Of a stretch of 64,000 nucleotides of DNA, positions 16,421 through 56,924 are shown piece by piece. The notes beneath the pieces were generated by a model, which was not told the DNA's origin, made no database searches, and was given only the letters and a program-made list of their open reading frames with translations. Within the stretch, counting starts at the first letter, position 1. Every line of letters starts with the position of its first letter. Origin of the DNA: Nemertoderma westbladi (taxonomy: Eukaryota; Animalia; Xenacoelomorpha). Both the position numbers and the translations under genes were made by a program. The stretch lies in NCBI GenBank assembly GCA_032718475.1, contig JAUCBJ010006078.1:9566-73565 (forward strand), in the 5' to 3' direction.

Positions 16421-18808
16421 TGTAAGCGGATTCAATTCCCTTACATTACCCACCCGAAAATGGGACCAGTGGCATTTTACCAATATAGTTGGCGATATGA
16501 GATTACCAATAATAATCTCGCCTCATAACCAACTCGGGGGGGGGGGGGGGGACACAGGCCCTAAAGCCACAGAGAGAGGTCAGATGTCAAACCACCTCAG
16601 AGGGAGAACCAGCTAGTTGAGGCTAGCAGCAGGGGGTAACACCTACAGGGAGTGCCAAAGTGACAATTAGTATATTTGCCAATAGCGGGCAGGGGAGCAC
16701 GTGGGGAAAGATAGGAAAGCATCCATTGGCTAGCGAAGGCCAAAGTAGAGTAGAGGTGAAACCAATATATATGTGTATCAATCATATAGTTATCCTGATT
16801 ACTGATTTACCGGTCAGTTCATTAATCACACAGTTAGGGACCAGCAATAGATTAGACCGTCATTTCATACACTGCTGTCATCATTCTGTATTGCAATTCC
16901 TACTATTGTTTGTTATACATACTGTGCTATTATCATTGGAACATTAACATCGAGAAACACAAACTCTGTTATTTTCCCGACGGCCTTCGGCCAAAGATAT
17001 TAGTCCAGCAGCCCAGCAGAGAAGTGACGCGAACAACCTAACCCTGTCGGGATCTTTGAACTCAATCCTGTCACAGTCTAAACTAGCGACTTCCAACAAC
17101 AACTGTGACCACAATCCAAAGATAAGTGAAGGAAACCAAACGCCCTGAGAATCGGAGGAAGAAAGAATGCCGCCGCGGACCCCGGACGACACCAACCAAA
17201 AGATCTGAGATGCCGCTACGAGACGATACCAGCCCACCACCCCGGATTCGCCAATGAGGGACGATCCGCATACCCAAGAGGAGGGCGGCCGACAACAACG
17301 AGGAGGGAAAGTCAACGATGAGTCGACGCGAGATGACGACGGCGGTCAGAGTACCGAAGTTGCCGGCCAGCCACAGGCTGAGGGCAATGGACGCCCCACC
17401 GGAATGGCAACGGTGGGGCTGCTGGTACGACGCCAGACGAGGAGGGAAGGTAGAGTCTACGAGGAGGACGTTGGGACGAGTGATTGCTTGCGATGGGCAT
17501 ACAACACCACTTAGAAACTACTAAAAGAGGCTAAGGAGGGGAGAAAGGTAGACCAGCCTAAATTATACAAGAGACTAGGTGAGTCAAACAAACATTTTCG
17601 TTACTTAGTCCGTTTTGGACAGGGAGAACTGGCGAGTGAGAGAGCGAGGGGGGTCGCCACAGAACTGTTTGAATTGTGGCAGTCCGAGGTAATGGAACCA
17701 GATGTAGTGTATGTAGGCCTTACTTAGTGGATGCCAGGGGAATTAAGTTAGTAGGTTGGGCGGACCCGCATGACGGCGAATCCGAGGTTAACCTCGAGGA
17801 TTCGGTGTTGTCGGTGAGTAGGAACCCCAGTAAACAGGGGAAAATTAGAAGGACAGAGAGGCGACGGGAGTCCGTCGCGACCGATAAGTCCGCTACATCC
17901 TCCGCGAAAGCAAGAAGGGTGTTAGAGATAGATCTGGCGTGTCAACTAGACATTGTGGCGCTGGATCAAAAGGAACTGGAAAGGCAGTTAGATGAGGGAA
18001 CTGCGTTGTTAGAGAGGGAGAGGGAATTAGCGAGAGAGTGTAAAGAGAGGGCTGAGAAGGTGGCGAGAAACTATAGGGAGCGGGAAGAGAGAGAGATGAA
18101 TGAGCGTAGAGAGCGTGAGGAGCGGGAGGCAAGAGTGGAAAACGAGCGCAAAGAGCGGGAGGCGAGAGAGATAAACGAGCGAAAAGAGTGGGAGGCGAAA
18201 GTGGAGAATGAGCGTAGAAAGCGGGAGGCGAGGGAGACATAATTAGCCAACCAGAGTATGAGGGAGGATAGAGAGAGAGAGAGAGAGCGGGCAAGCAGAT
18301 GTGGGATGATATGCATACGCGGCTGAGGGGGTTAATGCAGTATCAAGCGAAGCAAAAGCGCCTGTTAGAATTGGCAAAAATGGGACTATCGGAGAGTGAG
18401 GCTGGTTCGGGTAGTATTTACGAGGAACCAGAGGTAATGCAAACCTTTGTTATTACCACACTTACAGGTACCCGGCGACAGACCCAGGACTGGTGTGACC
18501 ATACGGGCAGGGGGGGGGGGGGGGTAATAATAATAATACGTTAGAGGGAGTTAATATTAATAGTACCGTAATAGACAACCCTAATCAAACCTTTCTTGCA
18601 GGAAATAATGTTTTACCTGGTAACAATAACCCTAATTTAAATGTGCAAAATAATCTAAATAATATAAATAATTCTGAGCAAAATAATTTAAATAATTTAA
18701 ATAATAATTTAGGTAACAATAATACGTTAAATAACCCTGAAGAAATTAATCAAAATAATATTATTAATAACGGTGTAACAAATCAAGGCGAAATTAATAA
18801 CGGTGCTA
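16421..18808 (+). mobile_element. BEL/Pao family B copy B1: 5' LTR 16421-17075 plus degenerate N-terminal gag region, truncated at a MITE
   Basis: LTR TGTAAG...TCACA is homologous to the B2/B3 LTRs. Gag-like frames at 17254-18800 (coiled coil, Asn-rich tract) match the B2/B3 ORFs. Confidence 0.85.
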
Positions 18809-18812
18809 TTAA

Positions 18813-19029: not shown

Positions 19030-19069
19030 TTAAGCCCCACTGTGTACCCCCATTCACCCTATAGTTTCA

Positions 19070-19790: not shown

Positions 19791-22700
19791 AAAAAATGTT
19801 TTATTTTTCTACTCCATCCCCATTAGGTATTCAAAACCTCCAAAATTCTAGCTACTGTTGATAGAGAGGGAAATTCTGTATATAAGGGGTTAAATTTCTA
19901 TGACAATTGGATTTATAGATTTGGAGAAACGTGTACCCAAGTAAGTACACTACGAGTCGCGATATCTCGAATGGTGTAAATGAGGACCCAATTTCACAAC
20001 CGCATTAGCTTATATATATAATACAACCTTTAGTATAGGTTTTGATCGACTGCTCTTTTCTGTTCTGCTGTAGAAAATTCTGAAATTCCTGGATGAGACG
20101 GGATCGTAGATCCCGACCGGGTTAGATTAAGTATGGGTCACCGTTCTGCTGGGGCTGTTGAGCTACTGGTCGTTTTGGCCCAAGGCCGTCGGGGAAAATA
20201 ACAGAGTTTAGTGTTTCTCAATATTAATGTTCCGAATGATAATAGCCAGAATCAGTATGGAATGAATATCCTGATACAGAATGACAGCAGAAAATACACA
20301 GATATTAATTGGTGATGTTGGTGGCGGTGATGGTCATAAACTATGACCGGTCTGCAACTCTGTGATTAATGAACTGACCGGTAAATCAGTAATACAGAAT
20401 AGTCATAGAATAGAATAGTTATTGGTTTCACCTCTTACTCTACTTGGCCTTCTGTACCCAGTGAATGCTTTCCTATCCCTGTTCACGTGCTTCCCTCCCT
20501 GCTATTGCCTAATATAATAATTGTCACTTTGGCACCTCCAAGGTGGTTTGACCTCTCATCTCTCTCTGTGGCTTTAGGGCTTGTGTCGCCCCCCCCCCCC
20601 CCAAAGTTGGTTATGAGACGAGATTACTATTGGTAATCTCGTATCCCCAACTATATTAGTAAAATGCCACTGGTCCCATTTTCGGGTGGATAATGTAATG
20701 GAATTGAATCCGCTTACACTCCCACCCATGCTATCTTCCCGGTGAGAAGATAGCATCAACCTTAAGTGCGCTTCAATTCCGCTGGAACCCAATCTAATAT
20801 CGGGTGTGGGGTGGAGTTCTTTTCTCGGGGTCGGCTTTCCAGACCGCCTCCCTGGATGTGTTATTACTACCCATCCTTGGTGCAATCGCGAGCTAAGTTG
20901 CACCAAGGCATCTGATGTCTCTGTATTGGACAATTGTGCTCTCTCCTCACACAATTTTCTACAACCTCACTCTAATTTTCCTCACGTACCTCGTTGTCCC
21001 TTACTCTCACTCTCATCTTCCTTACGGACCTCGCTGTCCCTTAGTCTCACGTCGATCCCTTGGGACTCTTCCCCTCTCACTGCTCGCTCCCCACACTTGA
21101 ATTGCACTCCTTTCACTCACTCACGTGTCAACACCTCCTCTCCATACTTCCCCCGATTCTCCATTTTCGTTTTCATTCTCCATACACTTATTGGGTCCCA
21201 TGCATGTGCGCATCATGTTAGTGGGATCCGTCTAAGTCTTGTCCTACATATCGTACATATCATATGAGTTGTATATAATAATTAATTATTATATTATGTA
21301 TTATATGTATTATATTATATGCCCGTCTATACGACGCATCTTAACCCCCCCCCCCCTTTCAGAGGTGATATGACCCGTCACTCCCGGTCCCGTCCGTTCA
21401 TGCTCTCTCCGCCTTTCACTTCCTTACTAACCTTTCCACCATCACGAACTTTTCCTGCGCTCACCCAATTGGTGGGGCCTTACAAAGGCTCAATTTAAGT
21501 GAGTGCCGTTAAACAAGATGTTACAATATACCATACTCTACTTTCTTACTATGTGGCGCTCTCAGTGCCCACAACTTATAACTCTTATGGTACTATGTAC
21601 CCTACTACTTCTATGGTATACCTACATACCATACTCTCTACTCTCTTACTTCTAACTCTTATGGTACTATGTACCCTGCTACTCTCATGGTATGTCTATA
21701 TACCACACTCCCTATTCTCTAACTTCTAACTCTTACATTACTATGTACCCTGCTACTACTCTCATGGTATGTCTATATACCACACTCCCTATTCTCTAAC
21801 TACTTCAATGGTATGCCTATATACCATACTCTCTACTACTACTATTTCTATGGTATGCCTATATATCATAGTCTCTCTACTACTTTGTGCTACGTACTAT
21901 CTACTACTAATACTTTCTACTATTGTAAGGGTCCAGTAGTATACCGCTTACCAGATCCTAGTAACGATGTATCTTACTATGAGACTCTAGTAATGTATAC
22001 GGGCTTGTACAGTATCTGACAACAAATCCCAGTCCAGGATATCTAAACAAACAGATACAATACACAAACGACTACTGGCGAGGAACAGAGCCTAGTATCT
22101 ATTCTATGTACGTGAGCGGGTTTAATGCCTACGTACTAGACAAAAGGATACCTGTCCTCTAACCGGTGAGGCAGATGTACAGTTACAGTAACAGACCAAA
22201 CTCACGGGAAAACAATCCCCGCGCAGCGAATCCTAACTATCACTGACAGTCCTAAATACAGTAACTTGCCGCGGTGTGATTTATATGGTTTATATACGAG
22301 CTAGGTGGTTAACAGACCTAGTGTAACAATGCTGATTACCCCTGTCTAAATCAGCCTAAAAGGTCGTGCCTAAATGTAAGGATAACTGATCCCCCTGTAC
22401 GAAATCAGTCTAAAGGGTCAGGCCTAAATGTAACAATACTGCTGGACAGAAATCAACAGTTTAATAACGAAAATGAAATACTCTATCTTGCCGCAACTAA
22501 ATCAGATCCTAATTTTACAAATACAGATAATTTCTACCCAAAATAATGTACAGTGCGCTATAGCTAGTAGAACTTTAAAGGGCAATATGTTTTAGGGCGT
22601 GTGTGTGTGGGTGTGTTACAAATAAAACAATTTCGTGTAATTCCTTTACTAGGTTTTAGTGATTTTCTGACTAAATGATACCGTGCGCTAGCTACTAAAA

Positions 22701-24378
22701 TAAACTAGTCGCGTTTGTAGAACTTTATACTCACAAATGACGTCAAAGCTCTCTCCTTCCTATCCACAACCCAATGGGCAACCACAGTGTTAGTAACTAC
22801 ACCCGTGATCGGCACTAATACCAGATTCTGGTTGTAAGATAAGGAATAGGGGTTAATTGCTACCGTACGTTAGCTGATCTGGTATACTAATTTAATTCTA
22901 GAACTTTGTTGCTGCGGTAGTTAGCAGCAATACCTATCAGTACGTGGCAAGGCGCGGTAGGATATTAATAAACCTCCATAGGCCAAGCAGTGTGCCGGTA
23001 GCAGAAATACTCCTTGCCTGATCAAATAGCTAACTCCAGACAGGGGGGGGGGGGGGGGTACTAATGTACGTTCTACAAAGCGAACCGGTACCAAACAGTC
23101 AGTGCTACGAATCACTAAATTATGGAACATATGCTGTCCGTACCTAATATGTACTCGCGTACTGACGAATGGCAATAGTTCGCACCTGTAGGAAGTACAG
23201 GTTAACCCAGGGGTTCGTAGGACTGACAAAGGGGGGGGGGTGTTTCTGTCTGAATATAATTATTTGATCCTAAATTTGCGGCGTCCAGTACGGCGTCACG
23301 CTTACCCTGATCTATAAGTCTTACCTTCTCACAAAGCGGGCGCTGCATAGCAAGTGGAGTATTTCGAAGGGCAAAGGGGGTGCGCGGTCAATCCAAATGT
23401 GGGCGCTAGTGTGTTGTGGACATCTCTTCCCTGCGTTGCTTACCGCCTAACGGTCTAGGCTGCCATCTCCCTGATGTTTGGCTGTCCCAAAGTTGGACCA
23501 AAAGAAAACATGTTCAGGAATTTGCAGTATATTTACAGTTTTTACAAAGGATTTATCAAAATAAAGTTTCAACAAGAAACCGAAATAACTAATAACAATT
23601 TAGAATAACGTTATAAGGAGAATTTTACAAAGTGGTAAGAAGTCGTAGAAGGTGATAACCGAAGGCAAACCGGCCTTTTATACTAAATATCGCACATGGA
23701 AACTAAACAGACCCATGAACACACTCACCGCTCCATGAAAACAGTAAGTAAGACTGTTTTCACCAATCGAAACATAAAATATTTACAAACTACTTCTAAA
23801 TCTACTAGTAGGGCCTAAAATATAAAATATAATCACTATCTAATTATTGCATACTTAATATTGCAGATACGGCGTAAATACAATCGATCGTACATACAAA
23901 TACAAATTTACGAATTAACTTTAGTGCCTAAAATACAAAAAAAAGGCTTTCGGTTATCAAGGTAAGCAAATTAAACAAATCAGAACAAACAAATCGAACA
24001 AATAAATCAAAACAAATCAAACAAATAATTCAAACTCTTTCGATAAATCTTTATATATTGTAAATATACCTAATAAACCTTCACCAAATTAAATCGGTCC
24101 AAATATAATATAAACATAATGCGCTAATAACTTTCAATAATGTCCTCCTGACGATCTAATAGTTCGTCCTGCTGGTCTGGATATCTTCTCCTGAGCACCA
24201 ATTGCTAACGGTAGGCTCGCAAGCCTTCCTTTCCATATCTCGCTCCTCCAAACCCAACATTCAAACATAACGTCCAATATAAATATCCAAATATAATATC
24301 CAAATATGATATCCAAATAAAATATCCAAATAAATATCCAAAATCGGTAGGCTCGCAAGCCTTCCTTCCACTCGCTTC

Positions 24379-25170
24379 CTATTCCTTCGCTGAGCGGGCT
24401 CGTCCACGTCCTCTAGTGCGATTGGGGGGTGGTCGAGGTCGAACTGGGCTCGGACTTCGGCGTCGAGTCGTCGGTGGTTCCAAAACGCTAGGAAAGGGGA
24501 CGACGGGAGTTTCGCACATCCGTCGTGCGCTTAATCCTCTAAATCCTCGTCCGATTCCAACTGTCGGCTTAACATCGGATCGAGTTTCTACAACGCTAGG
24601 AGGAAGTCGAAAGGGTAGGACCGTTCCGTCCGTTGACACCTCGCTCTCTGACATCGTTTGAATCCTAATGGGTTCAGTCAAAGCGTATCCTGTCCCTCCG
24701 CGTGGTTCTCTAGCAAGGGAAACCGTGCCCCGAGTCATCCGGATTTGTGACTTCGACGTCGTCCTCTCGGCGACATTTACTATCTTCTTAATCTCTTGTC
24801 TGGCCTTCTGGGCTTTGAGTATACGAAATTGCTGATCATCCTGTGGGTGACGCGTCTTCTCTGCTAACGGCGTGGCCTTGAAGCCAGTCTCACGCAAAAC
24901 GTCGGTCTCGTCCAGAATGCACGAGGTTACGCGTTTGTGATAAAATGCGCTCCGGTATGCCCAAGCTATCGAATGCCAGGCTCCTCGATTCCGCTGTTCA
25001 ACTCGCAGTTTATCGAATTCTCCGGCGGTAATCTTGTTCACCACAGTTTGAAAGTTCCAAGTATTCTTGTTGTCGGGTTGCACTTGTAAGAAATAGTCCC
25101 GCACAACTTTGAATCCACTGTCCAACGGCAATATATCCAATACCTCCAACAATTCATCGTACTGAGGCAT
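24379..25170 (-). CDS. Accessory ORF of element A, 263 aa, unknown function, Arg/Pro/Ser-rich basic C-terminus
   Basis: Intact ATG-to-stop ORF in element sense, 25 nt after the 434-aa ORF; ends RRRSPSPVRPRPPPNRTRGRGRARSAKE. Confidence 0.7.
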   Translation of the reverse strand: MPQYDELLEVLDILPLDSGFKVVRDYFLQVQPDNKNTWNFQTVVNKITAGEFDKLRVEQRNRGAWHSIAWAYRSAFYHKRVTSCILDETDVLRETGFKATPLAEKTRHPQDDQQFRILKAQKARQEIKKIVNVAERTTSKSQIRMTRGTVSLAREPRGGTGYALTEPIRIQTMSESEVSTDGTVLPFRLPPSVVETRSDVKPTVGIGRGFRGLSARRMCETPVVPFPSVLEPPTTRRRSPSPVRPRPPPNRTRGRGRARSAKE

Positions 25171-25195
25171 AGCCGATACATATCCTTACATATCC

Positions 25196-26500
25196 TTATA
25201 TCATAGGTTTACCAGTCCAATTGGTCGCGATATCGGTGTCGGTCTCAAACGTCCCAACTCCGATCCATAATCGAATCATTTTCGTCAGATATCCTCGCAA
25301 GATACAAGGTGCGATATCCGTCCCCGCGCGATCCACTTCCTTAAAGTCCGTGATATGTGGAGGCACGTTGCGTACGATTTTTTGAACTATTACTTTACGC
25401 AACTCGGTTGATTCTAACACATCACAGAAGGTGACCGATGGGAGGAAATCCAGGTTCGAGATGATCTCCGGGTGTTCAACTATAGGGATCTCGTAAGTTG
25501 TCTCCTTCCGGGTCGGTATACTAATAGGAAAACTAGTTGGTCTCGCAACCGGTACTATCGCTCCAGTAGAATGGGGCTGAGGTTCTCGCGTCATCTCGAC
25601 ATGAGGTATCTGTAGTCTCTGCGACAAACGCTGAGCAAAGGTAATACTATCGAAGAGCTCGGGTGTCATCTCCTTGGGTTCGGTTTGATCGTGGGATATC
25701 CAATAGAATGGTAGGCTCGCGAGCCTTCCGCCGAACTCCTCGATCTCGCCTTTCTCGTACGCCTTGTACGCCCTGTAGAGGCTCAAAGCTTCCCGTTTCT
25801 CTTGTGTCGACTTATTAGACTCGTCCACTACCATGCTGTAGACGTCTGGTTCGACTAATTTAGGTTCGTAAATAACGATCTCACCCGCGTTCAGTCCACT
25901 CATTTTAAATGAATGATACGGATTTGTCAAAGGGTATCCGCCTTCTTGGTAACGTAGACTTTGGTGGTATGAACATCGCGCTAATATCGGCTCGGGGTTC
26001 TCCGAGTTCAACCGCATAGGAATCGCGTTGTCTTGCACGCGCATACACGCTCCACATTTATAAAACAGTTTGTATACGGAAAACGCGTCCTTGGTCTCTG
26101 GATCCGCTCCTCGAGCGCGTCTATAAAGATGCATTCCTTCAAATTCGTCTCTAGCTGCAGGTAAGGGTTCGTTTACCGTCAAATATTGCAGCGTATGATA
26201 CAATCGGCGTATTTCGGTGTCTGGATCCTCGCAAATGTCGCTAGCGTCGCATAACGCATCGTAGGGATATAACGCATTGTATTCCGCGCGTAATTCCTCC
26301 GTTCTTTTGTTGTATGCGTCCAACCGCTGTCGCGTAACATTTGGGTCCGCCTTGGATTTAGCGAGCTTGGCCGTACTCCTAGCCATACTCTCCACTCCAA
26401 ACACACTAAAGTTTTTAGCTCCATAACGATTGAATGGCGCCTGGTGCTCTTGTTCTTGCGTAAACCCTTGACGTAACTCTTTATACATCTTCTCTGCCAT
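25196..26500 (-). CDS. Accessory ORF of element A, 434 aa, unknown function, possible CxxC...CxxH Zn site
   Basis: Intact ORF downstream of integrase in element sense; CGAC...CSYH; no evident signal peptide or TM segment; preceded by a strong splice acceptor at 26541. Confidence 0.78.
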   Translation of the reverse strand: MAEKMYKELRQGFTQEQEHQAPFNRYGAKNFSVFGVESMARSTAKLAKSKADPNVTRQRLDAYNKRTEELRAEYNALYPYDALCDASDICEDPDTEIRRLYHTLQYLTVNEPLPAARDEFEGMHLYRRARGADPETKDAFSVYKLFYKCGACMRVQDNAIPMRLNSENPEPILARCSYHQSLRYQEGGYPLTNPYHSFKMSGLNAGEIVIYEPKLVEPDVYSMVVDESNKSTQEKREALSLYRAYKAYEKGEIEEFGGRLASLPFYWISHDQTEPKEMTPELFDSITFAQRLSQRLQIPHVEMTREPQPHSTGAIVPVARPTSFPISIPTRKETTYEIPIVEHPEIISNLDFLPSVTFCDVLESTELRKVIVQKIVRNVPPHITDFKEVDRAGTDIAPCILRGYLTKMIRLWIGVGTFETDTDIATNWTGKPMI

Positions 26501-26540
26501 TGTATACGAATATATGCGGTTACATATCGTTACATTTCTA

Positions 26541-26568
26541 CTAGATGAAGCACAAAATAGAGGTTAGA
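26541..26568 (-). promoter_or_regulatory. Splice acceptor upstream of the accessory ORFs
   Basis: Minus strand tctaac (branch point) + ctctattttgtgcttcatc + TAG/TAG, 41 nt before the ATG. Candidate donors are AAG/GTGAGT at 26737 and AAG/GTAAGT at 36193 and 36295. Confidence 0.6.
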
Positions 26569-28939
26569 TGTGAGGTGACTTAGAGTTTGTCGGCCTTTGG
26601 CTCAACTCTGCTCTAAACCCCAACCCATTTTGCCTAATGATTTCGGGTTCGCGTGATTTCGCACTGGCTCCTAATCCAAAATTGTGCCGATAAAAAACGA
26701 ATTCCGGGTAAACTAGCCGCGAGTCTAAAATACTCACCTTTTAATTTCCCAAACTACGTTTCCCAAGAAAAATAGTGCAGTCGAGAATTAATTGGTCTAA
26801 ATAATAGTAGACACGACTACGTAGAACAAGGCCGATTTTCTTTTTTCCAAAAAAAATTTATCGGTAGGCTTGCAAGCCTTCCATCCGCTCTTGTCCTCCC
26901 CAATTTTAATTTTATCTAGCTGTATTCTAGAATTTGCTTTCACTGGAGAATCGTTTTTCTTAAATTTAAATCCAAATAAATGGATTTGTCTAATAATTTT
27001 GAAAAATTGTCTCACTTGTGGGTTCCAAGTGGAATTCCATTCCTACTGTACACACAATCCCGCTCCTATGTGATACATAAGGGTACTACCCTCCATGTTC
27101 ACGTATAAAGACAATGGAATTCCACCGCTGTCTCTATCTACAGTGAAGAGGATTACAAATGCACGTACAGTAATACAAATGCAAATAACTAAAATACAGT
27201 AGGTCTATGTGGCGGCCAACAAAGGTCCCACATCTATTTACTAATATTGGGTGGAGATTTGTAGTCTCCTGTCTCGTTTCTAGTCTCCTCAAGGAGTACG
27301 AGACGTTGTACAGGCCTATCTACGGTACGTCCGTCGATAGTCCTTACAGTAACTGTCCTCACTACACCAGATGTAGGGTGCATGGTCAAAATGACTCCAG
27401 TCAGCCAAAACCGTCTTTTCAGATTAGCTTCAGCCAATAAAACATGGTCACCACTTCTTAAACATCGGGTATTTAGATACCAAGAAGTTCTGGTCGAAAT
27501 AGAGGGCAAATAATATTTCTGCCATATTTCCCAGAATTTATTTGCAAGCAATTGAGTGATTTTCCAAGCCTTGTTGCCGTATCCGTCACTATCAACGGGT
27601 ACCGAAATGGGCAACAATGTCGTCGGCGCGTGCATAAGCAGGTGCGCTGGTGTCAAGGCAAACTGTACGTCGTTATTGTCTGGGATCAAAGCGATCGGTC
27701 TAGTATTTAAGATTGCTTCGATTTCTATTAGTAACGTCGTTAGTTGGTCGTCTGTCAAAATGTGTTGCGTCGGTACGACTTTAGCCATAGCTGTCTTTAT
27801 TGAGCCAATCAGCCTTTCCCAAACGCCGCCTCTCCCCGGACTGTCTGGAGTATTGAAAAACCAAACAATACGGTGAGGACGTAGTTCCTCGGAAATCTGG
27901 TTTTGGTCCAATTTTCTCAAAGCTCTGGTTATTTCGTTCCGTGCACCCACAAAGTTTGTCCCTTGGTCGCAGTATATGGATTTGACCAATCCACGTCTAG
28001 CGATAAATCGCCGTAAGGCTAGGATAAAGGCATTGGTGGTCAAGTCTGTCACTCGCTCTATATGGACAGCTCTGCTGGCCATGCAAGTGAAGATCAATCC
28101 CCAACGTTTTACCTGTACCCTTCCGCGTTTCGCGATCAGAACAAACCTCGAACGTAAGTGTGATAGACAGTGGTGTCTACCTACGTGTTTGAGTTGTACA
28201 TGTGCGTCCAGTATCATGGCGCGCTGTAACTCATGGTGTTGCGGTATGATGATAGGATACCTAAAGTCAAGTGCAAAGTCGATGTTTTGGAGTCTGGACT
28301 TGTGACAAAGTAAGCCCTGGTAAATAATCGGACTCCAACTCAAAATCGGTGAAGACTTAATCTGTTTACCTTGTTTGATCGCTGTGAACTCTCGTGCGAA
28401 TATCGCAATTGATAATGTCGAATGATATCAACTTCACAGTGGCCAATTTCCTTTAAGGTAAGTCTTCTAGGAAAGTCGCGTTTGCCTCTGGCATATTGTC
28501 TCAATCGTTTGAGCCATGCTAACTTGCGGCACGCGTCAGTCCAGGATCTAGTTAGGTTCACTATCCTGTCAACGTAAGTGTTAGTGACGTCATCGGGTAA
28601 GGTGTAGTCGTAGTGTGGATACTTGTCTGGACTTGGTAGGCCCACGGGCCTTCCGGTAGGTTTGTCTGAGTCCCCAAGTACGTCAATCTCTACGGTCTTA
28701 CCTTTACCGTCCGCACCTAATGTGTCGACTGGCAGTAACGGTTTCAACTCTACAGTGTCAGTGTGCTCCTGTGAGCCTGTAAGCTTCCTAACCTTAGTCA
28801 CACGTTTACCTGTAGGTAAGTCAAGTACCTTCTTCGAGCGGAGTGTAATCCCTGTGGCCACACCTTTGTCGTCCAGAGAAGTCAAATTCGGTAAGTCTCT
28901 AAAGGTCCGCTCCAATGGGTCTTCTAATGGAGTGTCTAG

Positions 28940-29360
28940 TAGACAGTCCGGTGAAGCGTCTGGTGAACAGTCTGGCGAGACGTCTGGTGAGACATAGCGC
29001 GGAACATCCAGCGAAATGTCTTGTCGTTGGTCCCAAAGTCTGTCTAGCGTAACTTCCGTCAGAAAGTCTGGTTCAAAGTCTGGTCTAAAGTCTGGTGGAC
29101 AGTCTGTCGAGATGTCTGGTGGAAAGTCTGGTGAGACGTCCGGTAGACATTCTGTCGAGAGTTCTATCAAACAATCTGGCGAACAATCCGGAGAACAATC
29201 TGGTGTCGCTTCTGGTGAATAATCTGGCGAGTAATCTGGTGAACAATCCGGCGAAACGTCTGGTGAAATCTCCCGCGGAACATCCGGCGAAGGATTCGTA
29301 CAAGCGTCTGGTCGAGTGTCTGGCGAGACGTCTGGCGTAATGTCAGGTCTGGCGTCCAGG
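28940..29360 (-). repeat. In-frame 12-bp degenerate repeat (PDxS)n between RNase H and integrase
   Basis: Protein reads PDVSPDCSPDYSPDYSPEATPDCSPDCS. Confidence 0.85.
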
Positions 29361-30126
29361 TCATCAGATTTCGTCCGTCCTTTTTTCCTCTTGACCTTGG
29401 CGTTGGCTTTCGCTTTAGACTTGACAACCTTGTCGAGTTTTATCTCGGCACCCTCTGGTATGGTGTTGGTCGTCGCGTCGAATAACGGTGGCCATTCGTC
29501 TGATGGTCGCTGTAGGAAATCGGGTCCTCTAAACCAAAAGGATTTATTGTCCGGTTTACAAAAGTCAAGTGGTTGCATCCCCCGTGACGCGATGTCACCT
29601 GGGTTCAGCTTCCCTGGACAGTGACGCCAATCTTGTTTGAGCGACCGGTCTAGTATTTCAGCCCGTCTGTTGGCTACGAAAGTCTTGAACTCAAATGCTT
29701 TGTTGTTTATGTACCAAAGTACCAACGTCGCATCCGTCCAATACGTGACCTTCAAGTTAGCCTCCAGCTCGCGTTGAACTAGACTGATAATATCGGTGGA
29801 TATCGTCCCGGCTTGCAGCTCCCCGCGAGGTACAGTCATATACTTCAATGGCATTGTTCTAGCCCTTGAAGTAACGAGAGATACATCGTAGCTGTCCGAT
29901 GTCACTTGTCGTCTAAGGTATAAAGTAACCCCCAATCCATCCTTGCTAGCGTCACTAAAGCTGTGAAGCTCTAAATCGGCAGGAAAGGTGGTTTGCAAAG
30001 GAAAGTATACCCTTGGTATGGTATAGTCTTGTAGGAACGTCAGTTGGGCTTCCCAGTCCCTCCATCGCTCAGCTAACTTTGCTGGGATGGGATCGTCCCA
30101 TTCCAGTCCGGCTTGCCAAATGCTGC

Positions 30127-30420
30127 GGAGTATGATCCTAGCATGTAGGATCACTGGACTAATGAAACACAATGGGTCATACAATCGACTCATGGTCGAT
30201 AAGCAAGTTCTCTTAGTGAGAGGTCTAGTCTGGTCGTTGGACCTTACACGTACCCTAAAATTGTCGGTGTTAGGGAGTATGATCCTAGCATGTAGGATCA
30301 CTGGACTAATGAAACACAATGGGTCATACAATCGACTCATGGTCGATAAGCAAGTTCTCTTAGTGAGAGGTCTAGTCTGGTCGTTGGACCTTACACGTAC
30401 CCTAAAATTGTCGGTGTTAG
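30127..30420 (-). repeat. Exact 147-bp in-frame tandem duplication in pol
   Basis: The 49-aa block PNTDNFRVRVRS...LHARIIL occurs twice. Confidence 0.95.
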
Positions 30421-38962: not shown

Positions 38963-38969
38963 TTTTATA
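38963..38969 (-). promoter_or_regulatory. TATA box of the element A 5' LTR
   Basis: TATAAAA on the minus strand with an upstream CCAAT near 39046-50. An Inr-like TCAC places +1 at 38940, 29 nt downstream. The related LTR has TATATAA at about 59966. Confidence 0.7.
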
Positions 38970-39255: not shown

Positions 39256-39325
39256 CCCGACCGGGATTCGAACTCGTAACCTATGTAATGTAACCAACGC
39301 CTTAACCATCTGACCACTACGCCAC
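39256..39325 (-). other. tRNA-like Pol III module (A and B boxes) inside U3 of the family A LTR
   Basis: gtggtcagatggttaaggcg...gagttcgaatccc; a homologous module is at 59715-59785 in the related LTR. Confidence 0.65.
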
Positions 39326-40271: not shown

Positions 40272-40529
40272 CTCCGCTATGCAGGACATTGCTTTCGCCG
40301 TGAGGACCAGCCAGTGCATAATCTTGTACTTTGGCAGCCTCATGGAGTGAATAAGCATGGTGGACAGCCCATGACTTTCTTGAGACGCATCTTAAAAGAC
40401 ACTGGCCTTAAAGATGCGGATGATCTAGCAAATGTCATGGGTGATAGGGAGTTGTGGCGGTGCAATTTTGTTGACAAGCCGGCACAGCATTCTTAAAAAT
40501 GCAGCTGCAATGCAGCATGCATGCTAGTA
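40272..40529 (+). mobile_element. 3' fragment of the same RTE family as 10575-11500, inserted in the B2 RT
   Basis: Shares gcaggacattgctttcgccgtgagg...gcattcttaaaaatgcagctgcaatgc; 9-bp TSD atcatctac at 40263-71 and 40530-38. Confidence 0.88.
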
Positions 40530-43500
40530 ATCATCTACATAGAAACCGCATTGAATCATGTCGATCGCCTTAGCACTATACTCTCCTTCCTTACCTTCTA
40601 CCGTATCTCTCACAGCTGTAGTCGTTGTAAATGAGGACGACTTGGCCCCCATGTTTTGCACCACCATTTTGTACATCGGTTTCTCAGACGGTTCTTCATT
40701 GCCGTTATACCATATGAAGCTTTGACTATCGCTGTCTTCTTCCATCACACGGACTTGGTTGAACATGCCTTCAACGTCACATGTGAAGGCGTGCCTCCCA
40801 TTTCTGAATCTCAACAGGACCTCTATCCCTGAGTTGTAGATGTTGGGGCCCTCCAGCAGATAGTCGTTCAGGCTCTTGCCACCGTCGCATCGATGGTGGC
40901 GTCACGTCGCGTTGACGCGTCGACCACCATCCGCAGTTTACCCTTCTTTGGATCTAAAGCCACGTGCAGTGGCAGATAGTAGGTTCTGTCTGTGTTTGGT
41001 TCGTCGACTGGTAACTCCACGGCCCACCCCTTTTCAACGTATTTCTTGATTGTCTTGTGGATGTACTCATCCTTCTCGGGGCTCCATCTGAGCGTCTGTT
41101 TCAGTTTGCGAAGCCCCGTGAGTACCATCCCTATGTTATCTGGTAATGGCATCTTTGGTTGTTTCCACACCATCCCTATGGTGTACTGTCCAACTTCGCA
41201 CTTCATCGACTCCTTTACACTCTCTATCGCTTGTTTATCTTCTACTGAGGTTCCAACCCCGGCCTCCTTTAATCCTTCGAAGTCCTGCTGCTGCAGCCTC
41301 TTAAGTTGTTCCTCTGCTCCTTCATCCTCCATCTCCCTCATTGTGCCTGCGAACATGCACCCTGATGTCTCCGACACCCTGAATGGAATCTTGGTTTTAA
41401 TTGGGCCGCTAAGCGTCCATCCGAATGGCGTAAGAATCGCCATCGGATCCACTGCTTATTCTCTCTGAATATGGTCCGTACTCTCTCGTGGGCCGTCGGA
41501 CAATCTATTCTGACTATGATGGATACCTTTGAGACGTCCACTTCCGGTATTGAGAAATCGATTTCGTCCAGGAACCGGTATTGCTCGACCTCGATCCTGG
41601 TGGGTCGCCTGGCATTTATATTAACCGATTCTATTATTTGAATGGGGTCGATGGTCGCCCCATAATCACATCCTGGTGCTATTGCTGATATCTCGCACCG
41701 TCCCATTCTCATCTCCAGGACCTCATCCTTGCTCAAGATAGTAGTTACCACCATCCTACTCGGCGTTGTCTGCAACCCTATCTCTTCAGCCACCCAATTC
41801 TCCACCAGCGTGAAGGCTGCTCCACTGTCGACCAGCATCAATGTTGTGACTGATCAGCCGCTTTCTCCTATCACCCTCACCAGTACTACCCCGAGTAGTA
41901 CTGTTCCCCTTCTCTTCGTTCCTATGGTGCTTGTCGCCATCGTTTGACCTTTGCTTTGACCGAATCTTATTGGTGTCTCCTTACACTGTTCAACTTTGTG
42001 TCCGCCTACCACACATCGATGACAGATTCCACTTCTGTCCGCATATTCTACCTGATCTTGTTTGGGCAACACCTGCCAATACTTGCAGTTCATAGTCTGA
42101 TGGAGTGCGTTTGAGTGTAATTGGCATTTGTTTCTCGGATTATAGCCTTCTCTATACAGTGCATTGCGTATCGCTCATATATTCATACTTAGCTGTCTAG
42201 CATTCTTATTATTTGGGTTTGGCCTACTGGGCGTGTTGGGGTTATATTTGTTTGTGTTATTATTTTGTCCCTGTTCATGCCACGGTGTGGCCCTAACCCC
42301 GGCTATCTGTGGACTTGCAGTCCCCTATGTCACCACATATGGTAGCGATTGTCTGAACTTCGGTAATGCATTTGCTGCACTATGCTCTGGTTTCAGCCTA
42401 TTGTATTCGGTTCTCGGCACCCTCCACAGACTATCCTCGCTGTAGACTGGGTCCGCGATTAGTCCGCCTCGTAATTGAGGAAGTTCAACATTTCCTCTAG
42501 GCCTGGTTCCGCACCTTTCTTCTCCCGGGTGGAGAAGGCAATCTTTCTCCACTTGTTTCTTAGCCAGATCGGTAGTGCCTGCACTATTGTGGTGATGTTG
42601 TTCGAAGCGTTGAGTTCATAAGGCCATCTAAGGTCTTTAGCACAATCAGCTTTATTTGCGAAAGTCTTGATGCTGACAGTGTTATCCTGAAGTCCACCTG
42701 ATGTTATTACCATTAAGGTTTGTCGGATGATCTTAGCAGGATGTCCGAATTCCCTGTCTAGGGCCCGCCATGCAGTCTTGAATCCACCTTCGCTACCTTG
42801 GTACTGCCTTACGATGTCGTATGCTGGCCCCCCTGTGTAAACTTGTAAGTATTTTGGGCACTCCGCCTGCGTCAGGTTCTTTGTTAATATTTCATTACTG
42901 TACATACGTCAGCATTGCAGATATTCCTCCAGTTTGCTTCCATAGAATTTGAACAGTTCCACTGGTGGCAGCTCGATCCTGGGCTTAAGCGCGTCGATGA
43001 GTGTTGCCACTCCCATCGCTTGTACTTCTAGTGCGCTCGATGGATGCTGTGCAGATTCCCCTGCTGCTGGGTGTGGTTTGCCCGTCAGGCCTGTCGACCT
43101 TTTCTGCGTTGGATATATCATTGGGGGTAACGGTCCCCTCCATATCTCTGTATCACATGACTTATTTTGGTCCGAGGGGTTTGGGGTTTTTGTTCTTGGT
43201 TGAGTATATTGCTGATATTGTAATGGGGGAATGTCACCCTGCCCCCCCCCCCCCCCCCACCGGTGTTATATTTGGTATTGGGGTTGATGTTACCATGTTA
43301 GGGCCCATACATCTATCGGAAATAGCTCCCCCTTCCCCTGGGTATATATTATATCCTTGCATATTATAGTCATACTGGTGTGCAGGTACCGGTATAGGCC
43401 TATCCACTTCTTGCCTAACTACCGGTATGTATGCCGCGACTTCCGGATCTAATCCCGTTGTCCACGTTACCCTATCGCCTACACTATCTCTTCCAGCATG

Positions 43501-45305: not shown

Positions 45306-45384
<79 letters not shown>

Positions 45385-48893: not shown

Positions 48894-49516
48894 CCCCCCT
48901 CTGACTGTCGGGGTATTCCTCCTTCACTCACTTGTCTTGCAGTCACAGCTTCAGTTGTAGGTGGCTGTTTATGACTGTGACAGGATCGTTGATCCCGACC
49001 GGGTTAGATTAAGTACACGTCACCATTCTGCTGGGGCTGTTGAGCTACTGGTCGTTTTGGTTCAAGGCCGTCAGGGAAAATAACAGAGTTTCGTGTTTCT
49101 CAATATTAATGTTCCGAATGATAATAGCACAGAATCAGTATGTAATGAATATCATGATACAGAATGACAGCATTAAATCAGTAATAAATATTGATTGGTG
49201 GCGGTGATGGTCATAAACTATAACCGGTGTGCAACTCTGTGATTAATGAACTGACCGGTAAATCAGTAATACAGAATAGTTATAGGATTGATACACACAG
49301 ATATTGGTTTCACCTCTTACTCTACTTGGCCTTCTGTACCCAGTGGATGCTTTCCTATCCCTGTTCACGTGCTTCCCTCCCTGCTATTGCCTAATATAAT
49401 AATTGTCACTTTGACACCTCCGAGGTGGTTTGACCTCTCATCTCTCTCTGTGGCTTTAGGGCTTGTGTCTCCCCCCCCCCCCCTCCCAAAGTTGGTTATG
49501 AGACGAGATTATTATT

Positions 49517-52500
49517 TGTGACGGGATCAGAAATCCCGACAGGGTAAGTTGTTTATACGCATCACCGTAGGCTGAGATGATATAGATAACTTGGCCGAGG
49601 CTGTTGGAGAAAAACGTTCAGAGTTTGATTTTCCTTGCGTTCTAATATATGTATAATAATAGCACAATATAGATTGCATATGTTAATGGTAACGAGAGGT
49701 AATATATGATTGATATACCAATATATGATGACGGTGAAACAATATTACCGGTCTGCACTGAAACTGGGTAACTGACTAATTGAATCACAAACCGGTAACG
49801 AGAGGTAATATATGATTGATATACCAATATTGCTTCACTTCCTACACTACTCTGGCCTGTTACCTAATGGGTGCTCTTCTGTGCCCTACCACGTGCTTTC
49901 CTCCCCCCTTATTGGCTAATGTTCTACTTGTCACCCTTTCACTCTCTGGGAGTGTTTCCCCTCTGCTGCTAGCCTCTACTAGCTGTGTCCCCTCTGAGGT
50001 GGTTTGACCTCTAACCTTCCTTTGTGTGTGGCTTCGGGGCTTGTGTTGCCCCCCCCCCCCCCCAAATGTTGGTTGTGATACGAGATTAATATTGCTAATC
50101 TCATATTTCCAACATATTGCTGAAAATGCCACCATCCCATTTTCTGGTGGGTAATGAGGCAGAATTGAATCTGCTTACACTCCCCCCATGCTATCTTCCC
50201 GGTGAGAAGATAGCATCAACTACCATTGCGCTTCAATTCCGCTGGAATCCGATCTACTATCGGGCGTAGAGTGGAGTTCCTTTCTTGGAGTCGGCTTTCC
50301 AGGCCGCTCCCTCTGGGTATGATATTGCTACCGCTTCTTGGTGCAATCGCAACCTCTGTTGCACCAAGATATCTGATGTCTCTGTTCGAGACAATTGTGG
50401 ACTCTTCACTAATTTTCAAAAACTCTAACTCTGAACTCACTCTAACCTCACTCTCAGACCCCTCTGTCCCTTACTCTCTCTCTCTCACACCTCGCTCCCC
50501 ACACTTGAATTGCATTCCACTCGCTTCCTCACGCGCCAACACCTCCTCTCCATACTTCCCTCGTACTCCTCTCATACTCCCCTCGGAACTTACCCCAGTC
50601 AATCGGCTTGTGGCAGACAAGGCCCATGAGCTGGCCCATCCCCACTGCTCTACAATGTCCTGTGTTCTCTACCACTCCCAAAGTGCCAGTTTTTCTTATG
50701 TTACCCCTGTCTGTGCTATCATCCTATCTACCTTGCTACTTGCTTCTTACTATGTACTTACTATGTAACTCTCTTACTACTAAATCTATTAACTCTATTA
50801 ACTCTAACGGTACTATGTACCCTAATATTGCTACTACCTACATAAGGCTGCTACCTAATACCTACATACCACACCCTTCATCTCTCACTACGTGGCGCTT
50901 GCGGTGCCCACAACCCATCTGCTACTACCTCTATGGTATACCTACATACCATACCCTCTACTCTCTTTCTATGTGGCGCTTTCGGTGCCCACAACCCCTC
51001 TGCCACTACTTCTATGGTATACCTACATACCATACCCTCTACTCTCTTTCTACGTGGCGCTTTCAGTACCCACAACCCCTCTACTCTCTTTCTACATGGC
51101 GCTTTCGGTTCCCACAACCCCTCTGCTATTACTTCTCATGGTATGTCTACATACCACACTCCCTCTCTTTCTACCTACTTCTAACTCTAACGGTACTACG
51201 TACCCTCCTACTCCCGTGGTATGTTTATATACCACACTCCCTATTTTCTGACTACTTCTAACTCTGATGGTACTATGTACCCTCCTACTCCCATGAGCTG
51301 GCCCATCCCCACTGCTCCACAATGTCCTGTGTTCTCTACCACTCCCAAAGTGCCAGTTTTTCTCATGTTACCCCTGTCTGTGCTATCATCCTATCTACCT
51401 TGCTACTTACTTCTTTACTATGTACTTACCAAGTAACTCTCTTACTACTAACTCTATTAACTCTATTAACTCTAACAGTACTATGTACCCTAATATTGCT
51501 ACTACCTACATAATACTGCTACCTAATACCTACATACCACACCCTTCATCTCTCACTACGTGGCGCTTTCGGTGCCCACAACCCCTCTGCTACTACCTCT
51601 ATGGTATACCTACATACCATACCCTCTACTCTCTTTCTATGTGGCGCTTTCGGTGCCCACAACCCCTCTGCCACTACTTCTATGGTATACCTACATACCA
51701 TACCCTCTACTCTCTTTCTACGTGGCGCTTTCAGTACCCACAACCCCTCTACTCTCTTTCTACATGGCGCTTTCGGTTCCCACAACCCCTCTGCTATTAC
51801 TTCTCATGGTATGTCTACATACCACACTCCCTCTCTTTCTACCTACTTCTAACTCTAACGGTACTACGTACCCTCCTACTCCCGTGGTATGTTTATATAC
51901 CACACTCCCTATTTTCTGACTACTTCTAACTCTGATGGTACTATGTACCCTCCTACTCCCATGAGCTGGCCCATCCCCACTGCTCCACAATGTCCTGTGT
52001 TCTCTACCACTCCCAAAGTGCCAGTTTTTCTTATGTTACCCCTGTCTGTGCTATCATCCTATCTACCTTGCTACTTACTTCTTACTATGTACTTACCATG
52101 TAACTCTCTTACTACTAACTCTATTAACTCTATTAACTCTAACAGTACTATGTACCCTAATATTGCTACTACCTACATAATGCTGCTACCTAATACCTAC
52201 ATACCACACCCTTCATCTCTCACTACGTGGCGCTTTCGGTGCCCACAACCCCTCTGCTACTACCTCTATGGTATACCTACATACCATACCCTCTACTCTC
52301 TTTCTACGTGGCGCTTTCGGTGCCCACAACCCCTCTGCTACTACTTCTATGGTATACCTACATACCATACCCTCTACTCTCTTTCTACGTGGCGCTTTCA
52401 GTACCCACAACCCCTCTACTCTCTTTCTACATGGCGCTTTCGGTGCCCACAACCCCTCTGCTATTACTTCTCATGGTATGTCTACATACCACACTCCCTC

Positions 52501-55500
52501 TCCTTCTACCTACTTCTAACTCTAACGGTACTACGTACCCTCCTACTCCCGTGGTATGTTTATATACCACACTCCCTATTTTCTGACTACTTCTAACTCT
52601 GATGGTACTATGTACCCTCCTACTCCCGTGGTATGTTTATAAACCACACTCCCTAATTTCTGCCTACTTCTAACTCTGACGGTACTATGTACCCTCCTAC
52701 TCCCGTGGTATGTTTATATACCACACTCCCTATATTTCTGCCTACTTCTAACTCCCCTCTTACTCTTACTAACTTCTACTGACTTTCTAACTTCTTACTA
52801 ACTTACTAACTTCTACTAACTTTCTGCTACTTACTAACTTCTACTAACTTTCTACTACTTCCTAACTACTACTTACTATCTAACTATCTACTACTATTAC
52901 TTTCTAACTTTCTACTATCTCACTTCATATTTTATTCTTATTTGCTTTTATTATTTATTTATTATAATTTGTGTAGGAAGGGCTTGTCGCCCTCATTCCC
53001 ACCCCCCTCAGTCCAACATTTGGACGACTAAACTTTAAGGTGCCCCTTCTAATAGGCAGCACTTTCCTACAGCCCTCCTGTAGGTCTTCCTGTCCTTTGC
53101 TCCTATCTTGCCTCCTATTCTCACCTCCACCGACCGGACTCTTCCGTGCTCATCGGGGTAAGTATCTACCACTCTCGCTAGACTCCTTCACCACCCTAAA
53201 ATCGGGATTTCCAATCGCCTTCTTGATTTCCTCATGGTCCCCTGGCAGCAAAATCCCACCCTTCATCTTGTCGTCACCTGGTGGTAGAATGAAAAGAAAT
53301 CGGAAGAATAGATAGAACAGAATGGATAATACTAATCCTATCCCTTTCCACCCTGTCTTCTTATTTGACCTCCCCCTTTTCGGTATGCCTCTCAATCGGA
53401 CCGGCATCTCCTCCGGACACTTCTCTGGACATCTCGCTGTCCACTTTTCTCCATCCTCATACCGATACTTGCCGGGGAAATCCTTGTCCCATGCCATCAT
53501 CTCTAGGTCTTCCGCGTCGAATCCATTCTCCCCCGCCCACTCTCTTGCTGTTACTTCCCCTCCTGAATCATCTACTGACGGTATTTCTCTGGAACTATCC
53601 TCTATCCTTTCACCACGCTCCACTATGTGTGGTTCCAGATCCATACCCAACTCCTGGTATCTTTCCCCGGACCGCTTCTCACATGGGACCTCACCATCAC
53701 CCGTCTCTGGTTTCTCCTCTACGTCCTTAACGGTGCCTGATAGCATGCACACTGATGTCTCCGACACCCTGGATGGAATCTTGGTTTTAATTGGGCCGCT
53801 AAGCGTCCCTTGTGATATTGGAGCCCACACATCTATCGGCAATAACTTCCCCCTCCCCTGGATATATGTTATGTCCCTGCATATTATAGTCATTCTGGTG
53901 TGCAGGTACTGGTATAGGGCTATCCACTTCTTGCCTGCCTACCGGTATGTATGCCGTGACTTCTGGGTCTAATCCCGTTGTCCGCGCTACCCTGTCGCCT
54001 ACACTATCTCTCCCAGCATGGCCTATAGTATGTGCAGTAAGGCCTACAGTATATCCTGCAGTCTGTATGTGTCCTTCCGAACCAAAGTTTAATCTTCTCG
54101 AATATTCCAAGAAGTCCTCCCCGCGACTACCGTACTCTCGATCGGCAGCTAGATCCCGTCGGGAGGTTTCTCTTCGATCCCCTCTCATGTTCTCGTCCTC
54201 GTATCGGTACGTTCTGTACCCTTCTCCTGGTGTGCGGTATATCTCACCAGGCTGCGTCTCTCCGGGGCGACGGCAATCTCCCGGAGTTCGACCCCACTGA
54301 CTCTCTAACTCCATCTCTACTACCGACAGTTTGCTATCCGTCCTCACTCTCCTGTTGCTCCTAGCAACGCTTCTTCCCTTCTCTTTACTTCTTCTCTCTT
54401 CAGTGTAGCGATCCTGCTCATGAGATCTCTCTTTGACCTCCTGGTTAAACTCCATTGTTCTTCTTCTCTCTTCCGACTGACGTCTTCTCGCTCGCCTGCT
54501 CCCGGCGTCAACATCTCTCTCTCTGCCCGGGTGGACGCTCCTGGGGATACTCACAATCCCCCTACTATTCTCCGTCGTCGGGTGCTGTGGTACAAATAAC
54601 TCGCCCCGCGCTTGTGGGACATTCTCTGCCCCCCCCCCCCCCCCTCTCGCCACTAATCTCCCATGGCGGGGCGCCCGTAGCCCCCCCCCCCCTCCACTTG
54701 CCACTTCTTACTTCACTACCTCTTACTTCGCTTCTACGCCCCACTAGTGGGACATTCTCTGCCCCCCACCCCCTCTCACCACTAATCTCCCGTGGTGGGG
54801 CGCCCGTAGCCCCCCTCCCAGTCACCACTTCTTACTTCACTACCTCTTACTTCGCTTCTACGCCCCTCTTGTGGGACATTCTTCGGTTAGGGTTGTCCAC
54901 TACAGTACTATTAATATTAACTCCTTCTAGCATATTATTATTACCCCCCCCCCCCCCCCCCGCCCGTACGGTTACACCAAACCTGGCTCTGTCGTCCGGT
55001 CCCTGTAAGTGGGGTATTAACAAATGTTTCCATTACTTCGGGCTCCTCATAAATACTACCCGAACCGGCCTCACTCTCTGATAATCCCAACTGCGCCAGT
55101 TCTAATCGGCGCTTTTGCTTAGCCTGATATTGCATAAGCCCCCTTAACCGGGCATGCATATCATCCAGCATACGCTTTCCCGCTCTCTCTCTCTCTCTCT
55201 CTCTATCCTCTCGCAAACTTTGGTTCGCTAATTCTATCTCTCTCGCCTCTTGCTCTTTACGCTCATTCGTTTCTCTTTCTTCCCGCTCTCTACAGTTTCT
55301 CGCCACCCTCTCTCTACATTCCCTCGCTAACTCTCTCTCTTTCTCTAATAATGCAGTTCCCTCGTCCAATTGTCTCTCCAACTCCTTCTGATCCAGTGCC
55401 GCAATGTCTAGTTGACATGCCAGATCTATCTCTAACACCCTTCTTGCTTTTGCGGAGGATGTAGCAGACTTATCGGTCGCGACGGACTCCCATCGCCTCT

Positions 55501-56924
55501 CTGTCCTACTAACTTTCCCCTGCTTTCCGGGGTTCTCGCTAACCGACGAGACCAAATCCTCGGGGTTAACTTCGGGTTCGCCCTCGTGCGGCCTACCCAC
55601 TAACTTAATTCCCCTAGCATCCACTAAGTACGGCCCTACGTACACTACTTCAGGCTCCATAACCCCGGATCGCCACAGTTCGAACAGTTCGGTGGCGACC
55701 CCCCTCGCTCTCTCACTCGCCAGTTCTCCCTGTCCAAAACGGACTAGATACCGAAAATGTTTGTTAGACTCACCTAGCCTTTGGTATAACTTAGGCTGGT
55801 CTACCTTTCCTCCCTCTCTGGCCTCCTTTAGTAGTTTCTTCGTGGCGTTGTAGGCCCGTCGTAGCCGATCACTCGTCCCTACGTCCTCTTCGCCGACTCC
55901 TCCACCTCTCCTGGTTCGGCGTCGTACCGGCGGCCCCACCATCGCCATTCCGGTGGGCCGTCCGTCGCCCTCGGCCTGTGGCTGGCCAGCAACTTCGGTA
56001 CTCTGACCGCCATCGTGCTTCGACTCGTCCCTCCCTCGTGGTTGACGGCTGCCCTCCGCTTGGGGTACCGGATCGTCCCTCATCGGCGAATCCGGCGTCA
56101 CAGGTCGATACCGTCGCGTCGCGGCCTCACGGATCGGCCCCGGGGTCTGCGGCGGCGTCCTCTCTCCTTTAGATAATCGTGGGTTCTCCTTGGCTCATTT
56201 TTTATCTCTTATTCTTGCAGTCACAGTTTGATGGCAGTTGGTCTATTGTTTCACTGTGACGGGATCAGAGATCCCGACCGGGTAAGTTGTTTATACGCGT
56301 CACCGTAGGCTGAGATGATATAGATAACTTGGCCGAGGCCGTTGGAGAAAAACTTTCAGAGTTTGATGTTCCTTGCATTCTAATATATGTATAATAATAG
56401 CACAATATAGATTGCATATGTTAACGGTATTGAGAGGTAATATATGATTGATATACCAATATACGATGATGGTGAAACAATATTACCTGTCTGCACTGAA
56501 ACTGGGTAACTGACTAACTGAATCACAAACCGGTAACGAGAGGTAATATATGATTGATATACCAATATTGCTTCACTTCCTACACTACTCTGGCCTGTCA
56601 CCTAATGGATGCTCTTCTGTGCCCTACCACATGCTTTCCTCCCCCCTTATTGGCTAATGTTCTACTTGTCACCCTTTCACTCTCTGGGAGTGTTTCCCCT
56701 CTGCTGCTAGCCTCTACTAGCTCTGTCCCCTCCAAGGTGGTTTGACCTCTAACCTTCCTTTGTGTGTGGCTTCGGGGCTTGTGTTGCCCCCCCCCCCCCC
56801 AAAAATGTTGGTTGTGATACGAGATTAATATTGCTAATCTCGTATCTCCATCTCCAACATATTGCTGAAAATGCCACCATCCCATTTTCTGGTGGGTAAT
56901 GAGGCGGAATTGAATCCGCTTACA
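49517..56924 (-). mobile_element. BEL/Pao family B copy B3, non-autonomous, 7.4 kb, inserted in the 5' LTR of B2
   Basis: LTRs 49517-50179 and 56255-56924 are highly similar; TSD TTATT at 49512-16 and 56925-29; PPT 50180-87; gag N-terminal ORFs 54941-56101 and 53799-54704; pol almost entirely deleted. Confidence 0.93.
50623..52625. repeat. Three tandem copies of a 667-668 bp unit with internal subrepeats in the B3 3' region
   Basis: cccatgagctggcccatccccactgctc recurs at about 50623, 51290 and 51958. Confidence 0.92.

Follow-up and report, generated by a model that had tools for sequence, protein, structure and literature searches.

Likely self-priming of reverse transcription in BEL/Pao retrotransposons of Nemertoderma westbladi

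The stretch of DNA analysed here (the window) comprises 64 kb of animal DNA from Nemertoderma westbladi (contig JAUCBJ010006078.1) and is rich in nested retroelements, including three copies, B1, B2 and B3, of a long terminal repeat (LTR) retrotransposon family that we call family B, and an element of a second family, family A. A preliminary description of this DNA proposed that family B, a BEL/Pao lineage, primes reverse transcription without a transfer RNA (tRNA), and our results make it likely that the elements do prime themselves in some form. The proposal draws on a primer binding site (PBS) that is not of the tRNA type, on its covarying complementarity to the element's own LTR, and on the recurrence of this arrangement in family A and in 9 of 12 relatives; the act of priming itself is what we infer from these features. 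Of the conceivable forms, we lean towards one in which the element's RNA supplies its own primer, a rather long piece from the 5' end that would pair through an 11-bp core at its 3' end.

The PBS and LTR strings of the preliminary description are present where it had placed them, and the three LTR segments occupy identical columns of the alignment. B1 lies on the forward strand. Its 5' LTR (16421-17075, TG...CA) was delimited at the 3' end by homology, because the window holds no B1 3' LTR; a B1 target-site duplication (TSD) was likewise not found within the window. The B1 PBS (17076-17085) is complementary at 9/10 positions to a primer-like core at 16848-16857. B2 and B3 lie on the reverse strand: the B2 PBS (48967-48975) pairs 9/9 with a core at 49210-49220 in the 5' LTR and 20333-20343 in the 3' LTR, and the B3 PBS (56244-56254) pairs 11/11 with a core at 56472-56482, found again at 49734-49744. 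A tRNA-type PBS is indeed absent, there being no TGG in the 60 nt 3' of the 5' LTR in B1, B2 and B3, nor in family A (4/4). The covariation of PBS and core also holds up, in that the best complement of each PBS is the cognate homologous segment and non-cognate segments reach at most 8/11. When each PBS was scanned against all five B LTRs, the best 11-nt complement was 9/11 for B1, 9/11 for B2 (in a run of 9) and 11/11 for B3; the B1 LTR has another 9/11 site, with a run of only 1. The chance of an equal match at one fixed position is 3.5e-5 (B1), 4.5e-6 (B2) and 2.2e-7 (B3), and an equal match anywhere in the dinucleotide-shuffled own LTR arose in 116/5000, 11/5000 and 3/5000 cases, respectively. 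Family B is abundant in three sequencing runs of the same organism (X1-X3; read depth is not a copy number), and all of their contigs covering position 48966 (9, 5 and 6) depart there from the window copy, and the change extends the B2 pairing to 10. The contigs of these runs also hold one further variant of the LTR core and are too short to link core with PBS. In family A, also on the reverse strand, the PBS (37174-37183) finds a 10/10 complement in both of its own LTRs (38441-38450 and 23188-23197), where 0.003 would be expected.

Are these elements isolated cases? Relatives were gathered by RT (reverse transcriptase) alignment as 15 BEL/Pao loci in animal DNA residing in bacterial metagenome-assembled genomes (MAGs), plus 13 further regions. 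The counted sample consists of the 12 elements, from 7 MAGs, with usable LTR and leader and is biased towards relatives of the B2 RT; 16 loci with no usable BEL LTR and leader (L014, L016, L020, L025, L027, L056-L061 and L063-L067) were left out. Contiguous and spliced matches were searched alike, and 9/12 elements have an 11/11 self-match. It is contiguous in L015, and in L017, L018, L019, L021, L022, L023, L026 and L062 it appears solely when the two sides of an LTR-internal, canonical GT..AG junction are joined, the donor being GTGAGT, GTAAGT or GTATGT and the AG acceptor rich in pyrimidines. Complementarity that depends on splicing implies that RNA pairs with RNA. Shuffled leaders equalled 11/11 in 0/200 trials (0/60 for L021). 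The close relatives L017 and L022 share an acceptor but diverge at the 3' end of exon 1, in its final three bases, and each PBS differs to match. In L055 the PBS is of the TGG type and no self-match occurs, and L013 and L024 are not significant by script; matches of 10/11 (L013) and 11/11 (L024) across weaker acceptors were seen by eye only and not counted. An LTR pair fixes the LTR end in seven elements; of these, four reach 11/11 under the preset rule and L055 is tRNA-type, while L026 reaches 11/11 only with the spacer widened to 8 and L013 has its 10/11 by eye. As a negative control, the Copia-like LTR pair of L020 (331 nt; L020:1182-5901, reverse strand) gave no self-match; its PBS resembles the half-tRNA-Met type of Copia. 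In family B itself, the best splice-junction primer reached only 6-7 of 11 and was rejected; in family A such a match (10/11) is level with the contiguous site.

In two unrooted trees, all self-complementary elements, B2 and A included, lie on one side of a branch, apart from L055. Support for this branch is 99/98 in the first tree and 97 in the tree that includes the in-frame pieces of B2, with identical grouping; the trees hold no named clade references (Sinbad, Sailor, Suzu etc.). The BEL/Pao identity put forward for family B is borne out by PF05380 matches in B2 (E 1e-11) and A (E 3e-46) and by RT neighbours that carry PF05380/PF18701; the RT pieces of A and B2 are 38% identical. The animal BEL/Pao elements in GTDB MAGs are host contamination, and PF05380 exceeds its cut-off in 9/10 of the MAGs G001-G010, with 13 matches in G001. 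A DNA pattern scan gave 0 matches in viral contigs and 12 in metagenome contigs, all of them chance matches of 18-21 nt, and protein scans of viral contigs gave no match.

Where might the RNA begin? The preliminary description had placed the transcription start site (TSS) at the first A of the complementary segment, as in Tf1, and this part is not supported here. B1-B3 have a TATA-like motif 63-68 nt and, 31-32 nt from it, an initiator (Inr)-like TCAGTT 32-37 nt ahead of the core. In B1, TCAGTT lies at 16814-16819 with its A, the predicted TSS, at 16816 and a TATA-like motif 31 nt upstream; the Inr-like A is at 49252 in B2 and at 56519 and 56511 in B3. L019 shows the same spacing. A motif resembling a downstream promoter element at +28, present in B2 and B3 and not in B1, was not used. 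Moreover, the pairing in B1 and B3 takes in the T preceding the A, and the leader also pairs with bases lying 5' of the core. This second helix, of 2-6 bp after a 2-3-nt bulge, occurs in 12/15 elements and is cognate-specific (score 111 versus 55 by permutation; 1/20000, or 9 with relatives dropped and 41 for the outside elements alone). The core pairing ends sharply at its 5' edge, the next pair being present in 1/15 elements (p ~0.009, or 0.03 once relatives are dropped). In folds that begin at the Inr and include 45 nt of leader, the core:PBS helix forms with P 0.74-1.0 in all B copies; from the first base of the core, P is 0.3 (B1), 0.04 (B2) and 1.0 (B3). The fold of B3 has z = -3.63.

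Self-priming exactly as in Tf1, with the core as the first 10-11 nt of the transcript, would account readily for the length of the core and its sharp 5' edge, as well as for a predicted hairpin of the GGGAT/ATCC type at the end of U5 that adjoins the PBS in all three B copies (56255-56275 in B3, reverse strand). Promoter motifs, in addition, predict starts weakly, and L015 lacks a 5' extension. We nevertheless consider this version unlikely, given the upstream TATA/Inr-like pair in all B copies, the cognate-specific helix 5' of the core, the poor folding of B1 and B2 from the first base of the core, and the spliced relatives, whose first exon would measure a mere 3-7 nt. Pretzel pairing of the Tf1 type is likewise at chance level across 15 elements (160 versus 162 by permutation), with candidates of 4-5 bp in B1 and B2.

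We therefore envision, from the sequences at hand, the longer-primer scenario as follows. Genomic RNA would start about 30-37 nt upstream of the core, and its 5' end would double back to pair with the PBS. Cleavage immediately 3' of the core, probably by the element's RNase H by analogy with Tf1, would then allow the element's own RNA to prime minus-strand DNA synthesis. If plus-strand synthesis ended in the PBS sequence, it would copy the core into the PBS of the daughter element, which would explain why PBS and core changed together; selection alone could also keep the two in step. In many relatives the core would be formed by splicing out an LTR intron, and B, A and L015 would represent contiguous versions.

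Several observations weigh against this scenario. TSS, splicing, cleavage and priming are all deduced steps, and a primer of ~44 nt sits uneasily with a copy of 11 nt, which might be explained by a further cleavage at the bulge or by the second helix acting as a block. In a looser search that allowed spacers of 0-5 and either contiguous or spliced matches, B1 (42/200), B2 (45/200) and A (22/60) are not individually significant, and B3 is (0/200); the case thus rests on shared position, zero spacer and covariation. The B1 core:PBS pairing contains one internal mismatch. The LTR ends of L018, L019, L021, L023 and L024 were set by eye, the spacer of 8 in L026 was adopted post hoc, and the rule on the bulge before the second helix was settled after inspection; L013 and L015 lack that helix, and in A it is 1 bp. 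L015 has its TATA-like motif 29 nt before the core, which fits a start of the Tf1 type. The B2 core:PBS helix is lost (P 0.0) when the fold starts at the Inr and takes in 100 nt of leader, and distal pairing between arm and leader in B is weak (p 0.007-0.13 by shuffling) and not cognate-specific. RNAalifold on the three B copies favours a hairpin that hides the PBS; it missed the core helix, the core and PBS columns are out of register in the alignment, and the hairpin is possibly an alternative state. Finally, the trees are unrooted, with B2 on a long branch and just one tRNA-type element.

The hairpin bears on a further explanation, namely that the pairing is a selected structural or regulatory RNA, acting in packaging, in translation or as a switch that masks the site, and that a host RNA is the primer. 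The LTR end is predicted to be able to pair alternatively with CTGTGAC in the leader, which would enclose the PBS in a loop, a feature conserved in B; the instability of the core helix in some folds and the deduced nature of the cleavage step would also suit a purely structural role. In LTR elements, however, the primer must adjoin the LTR end, and this is where the helix sits: it begins 0-5 nt (8 in L026) from that end and hardly varies in length between unrelated families. Were the primer a host RNA, it would need to fit four different PBSs in this genome alone, and no complement other than the element's own RNA was found beside the LTR end. We accordingly hold a structural role without self-priming to be quite improbable. 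Priming by internal tRNA fragments, with an incidental LTR match, has a precedent in the half-tRNA priming of Copia lineages (PMC6317226, accessible sections) yet leaves the cognate-specific LTR complements and the splice-junction matches unexplained, which makes it very improbable. Chance complementarity in A/T-rich sequence, to which the results of the looser search and non-cognate matches of up to 9/10 within the 2.3-kb A LTR might point, is already largely refuted by the recurrence of the match in the same column of three copies at zero spacer, in a second family, and at 11/11 in 9/12 outside elements.

How do the B copies sit in the window? B2 (20094-57016, reverse strand; TSD CTGGA at 20089-20093 and 57017-57021) has received B3, a long interspersed nuclear element (LINE) and family A as nested insertions. 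Its 3' LTR spans 20094-20718, and B3 separates the 3' part of its 5' LTR (48976-49516) from the 5' part (56925-57016). A degenerate gag-protease (PR)-RT(YVDD)-RNase H region at 39750-43000 (reverse strand), with PF13650 (protease) and PF05380 matches, was recognised by domain search, tblastn and reading frames, none of which found an integrase remnant in B2. B3 (49517-56924, reverse strand; TSD TTATT at 49512-49516 and 56925-56929) lies inside the B2 5' LTR, and its own LTRs span 56255-56924 and 49517-50179; domain search and tblastn found no pol in either B1 or B3. The LTR pairs are 94.8% (B2) and 96.2% (B3) identical and the copies differ by 16-24% in their LTRs (76-84% identical); owing to these divergences we regard the B copies as old, defective insertions, and because they are related they do not amount to three independent origins. 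B2 and B3, both devoid of integrase, have a common 3' region from an identical point (39727-39458 and 53118-52856), which suggests that they are non-autonomous deletion derivatives. Directly before the polypurine tract (PPT), both also carry an identical 11-bp stem-loop with differing flanks (20728-20756 and 50188-50216). An open reading frame (ORF) for a LINE-type RT (PF00078; 46863-48395, forward strand) runs antisense within the B2 leader. Beside B1 lies a host gene, with a coding exon of a Tectonin/Hyd_WA beta-propeller at 14732-15544 (forward strand). A satellite array with a 39-nt unit (57200-60990) is broken by an A2 LTR fragment, and further tandem arrays occupy 7717-8480, 16072-16450 and sites inside the B elements.

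Family A (21924-39467, reverse strand; TSD ATAGT in element sense), nested in B2, has a 5' LTR at 39467-37184 and a 5'-shortened 3' LTR at 23709-21924; DUF1759, zf-CCHC, RNase H and DUF5641 follow in order. A duplication in its leader (37186-37020) repeats the final LTR bases together with the PBS, the second PBS copy lying at 37059-37068. A2, a partial family-A-like LTR (59576-60740, forward strand), has a variant core at about 60486-60495 and no PBS. In both A (38460-38435, reverse strand) and A2 (about 60475-60505, forward strand) the core is also the pyrimidine tract of an acceptor-like site, with a branch-like AAC followed by CAG|GTGCG; upstream lie conserved GGTAAG motifs that resemble donors. 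Alternatively, CAG|GTGCG could itself be a donor and reduce the 1.26-kb distance to the LTR end. A-type LTRs contain, in their U3, a tRNA-like stretch with a box-B-like motif (59715-59785, forward strand; homologue in 39118-39422, reverse strand); ARAGORN called no tRNA in the window, this stretch included. Two ORFs 3' of the A pol (24379-26563, reverse strand; 455 and 268 aa from stop to stop) have no Pfam match.

The earlier remark that no report of self-priming was known for BEL/Pao agrees with the literature covered here, mostly titles and abstracts, with subscription journals, Repbase, GyDB and supplements outside its scope. The accessible text of three BEL/Pao surveys (PMC554778, PMC3118150, PMC6238403) does not mention PBS, tRNA or priming, and that of a fourth (PMC2774666) does not mention PBS, priming or primer; in the accessible portions, PMC8220671 treats the PBS only generically and PMC3286476 does not analyse BEL elements. 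Self-priming is placed, in the sections covered, in Tf1/sushi, Tcn1 and, as a prediction, TAR Copia elements (PMC4600332, PMC6317226, PMC7175516, PMC5341516, PMC3601003, PMC6934838, bioRxiv 2022.12.06.519325); within this literature only Tf1 has been demonstrated to self-prime, and related chromoviruses and a single plant Copia lineage are predicted cases. The feature reported here is real and probably new: likely self-priming, organised differently from that of Tf1, in a superfamily held to be tRNA-primed. Whether a large and widespread animal BEL/Pao clade gave up tRNA priming for a capped 5' RNA primer, often with a splice-made core and with B and A as its intron-less forms, seems to us an evenly balanced question. 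If so, self-priming would have one more occurrence, apparently independent of the others, which would bear on which came first, self-priming or tRNA priming. A splice-made primer would tie the spliceosome directly to the initiation of reverse transcription, and splicing would consequently gate that step. The elements would also escape silencing by tRNA fragments, and their organisation would account for their being overlooked by PBS-based annotation. The predictions of TSS, splice junction and primer length are cheap to test.

How, then, do these elements compare with known systems? With the Belpaoviridae they share the animal host, TG...CA LTRs, 5-bp TSDs (in B2, B3 and A), a PPT (before the 3' LTRs of B2 and B3), PF05380 and the order gag-PR-RT-RNase H, which B2 preserves from PR to RNase H (PMC8742986). 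The ICTV profile gives this family an 18-nt PBS for tRNA-Arg or tRNA-Gly and priming by host tRNA, and calls its replication 'poorly understood' (PMC8742986); such a PBS is lacking in B1, B2, B3 and A, whose BEL/Pao membership rests on Pol homology. Named BEL/Pao clades include Sinbad, Sparrow, Surcouf and Suzu (PMC6238403, accessible text). The TAR lineage of plant Ty1/copia elements (Houba, Osr-1) offers a parallel in that self-priming was predicted from sequence outside Ty3/gypsy, whereas it belongs to the Copia superfamily of plants, and no splice-junction primer is described in the sections covered (PMC6317226). A further likeness is to Tf1/Tf2/Tj1, Tf1/sushi and Tcn1, which, as far as the accessible text goes, lack a tRNA PBS and have one that complements ~11 nt of their own LTR-derived RNA, with a U5-end hairpin (PMC7175516, PMC4600332, bioRxiv 2022.12.06.519325). 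Those are Ty3/gypsy chromoviruses, whereas the window elements have a Pao-type RT and RNase H and the A integrase ORF has no chromodomain match; we do not count the window elements among the Tf1/sushi group. The Tf1 primer, in the part of the account covered, comprises the first 11 nt, the RNase H cut falls between bases 11 and 12, and plus-strand synthesis ends in the PBS sequence (PMC7175516). Here, by contrast, the core probably lies internally, the extra helix draws on bases 5' of it where the flanking duplexes of Tf1, in the accessible accounts, use the LTR downstream of the primer, and in the relatives the core spans a splice junction.

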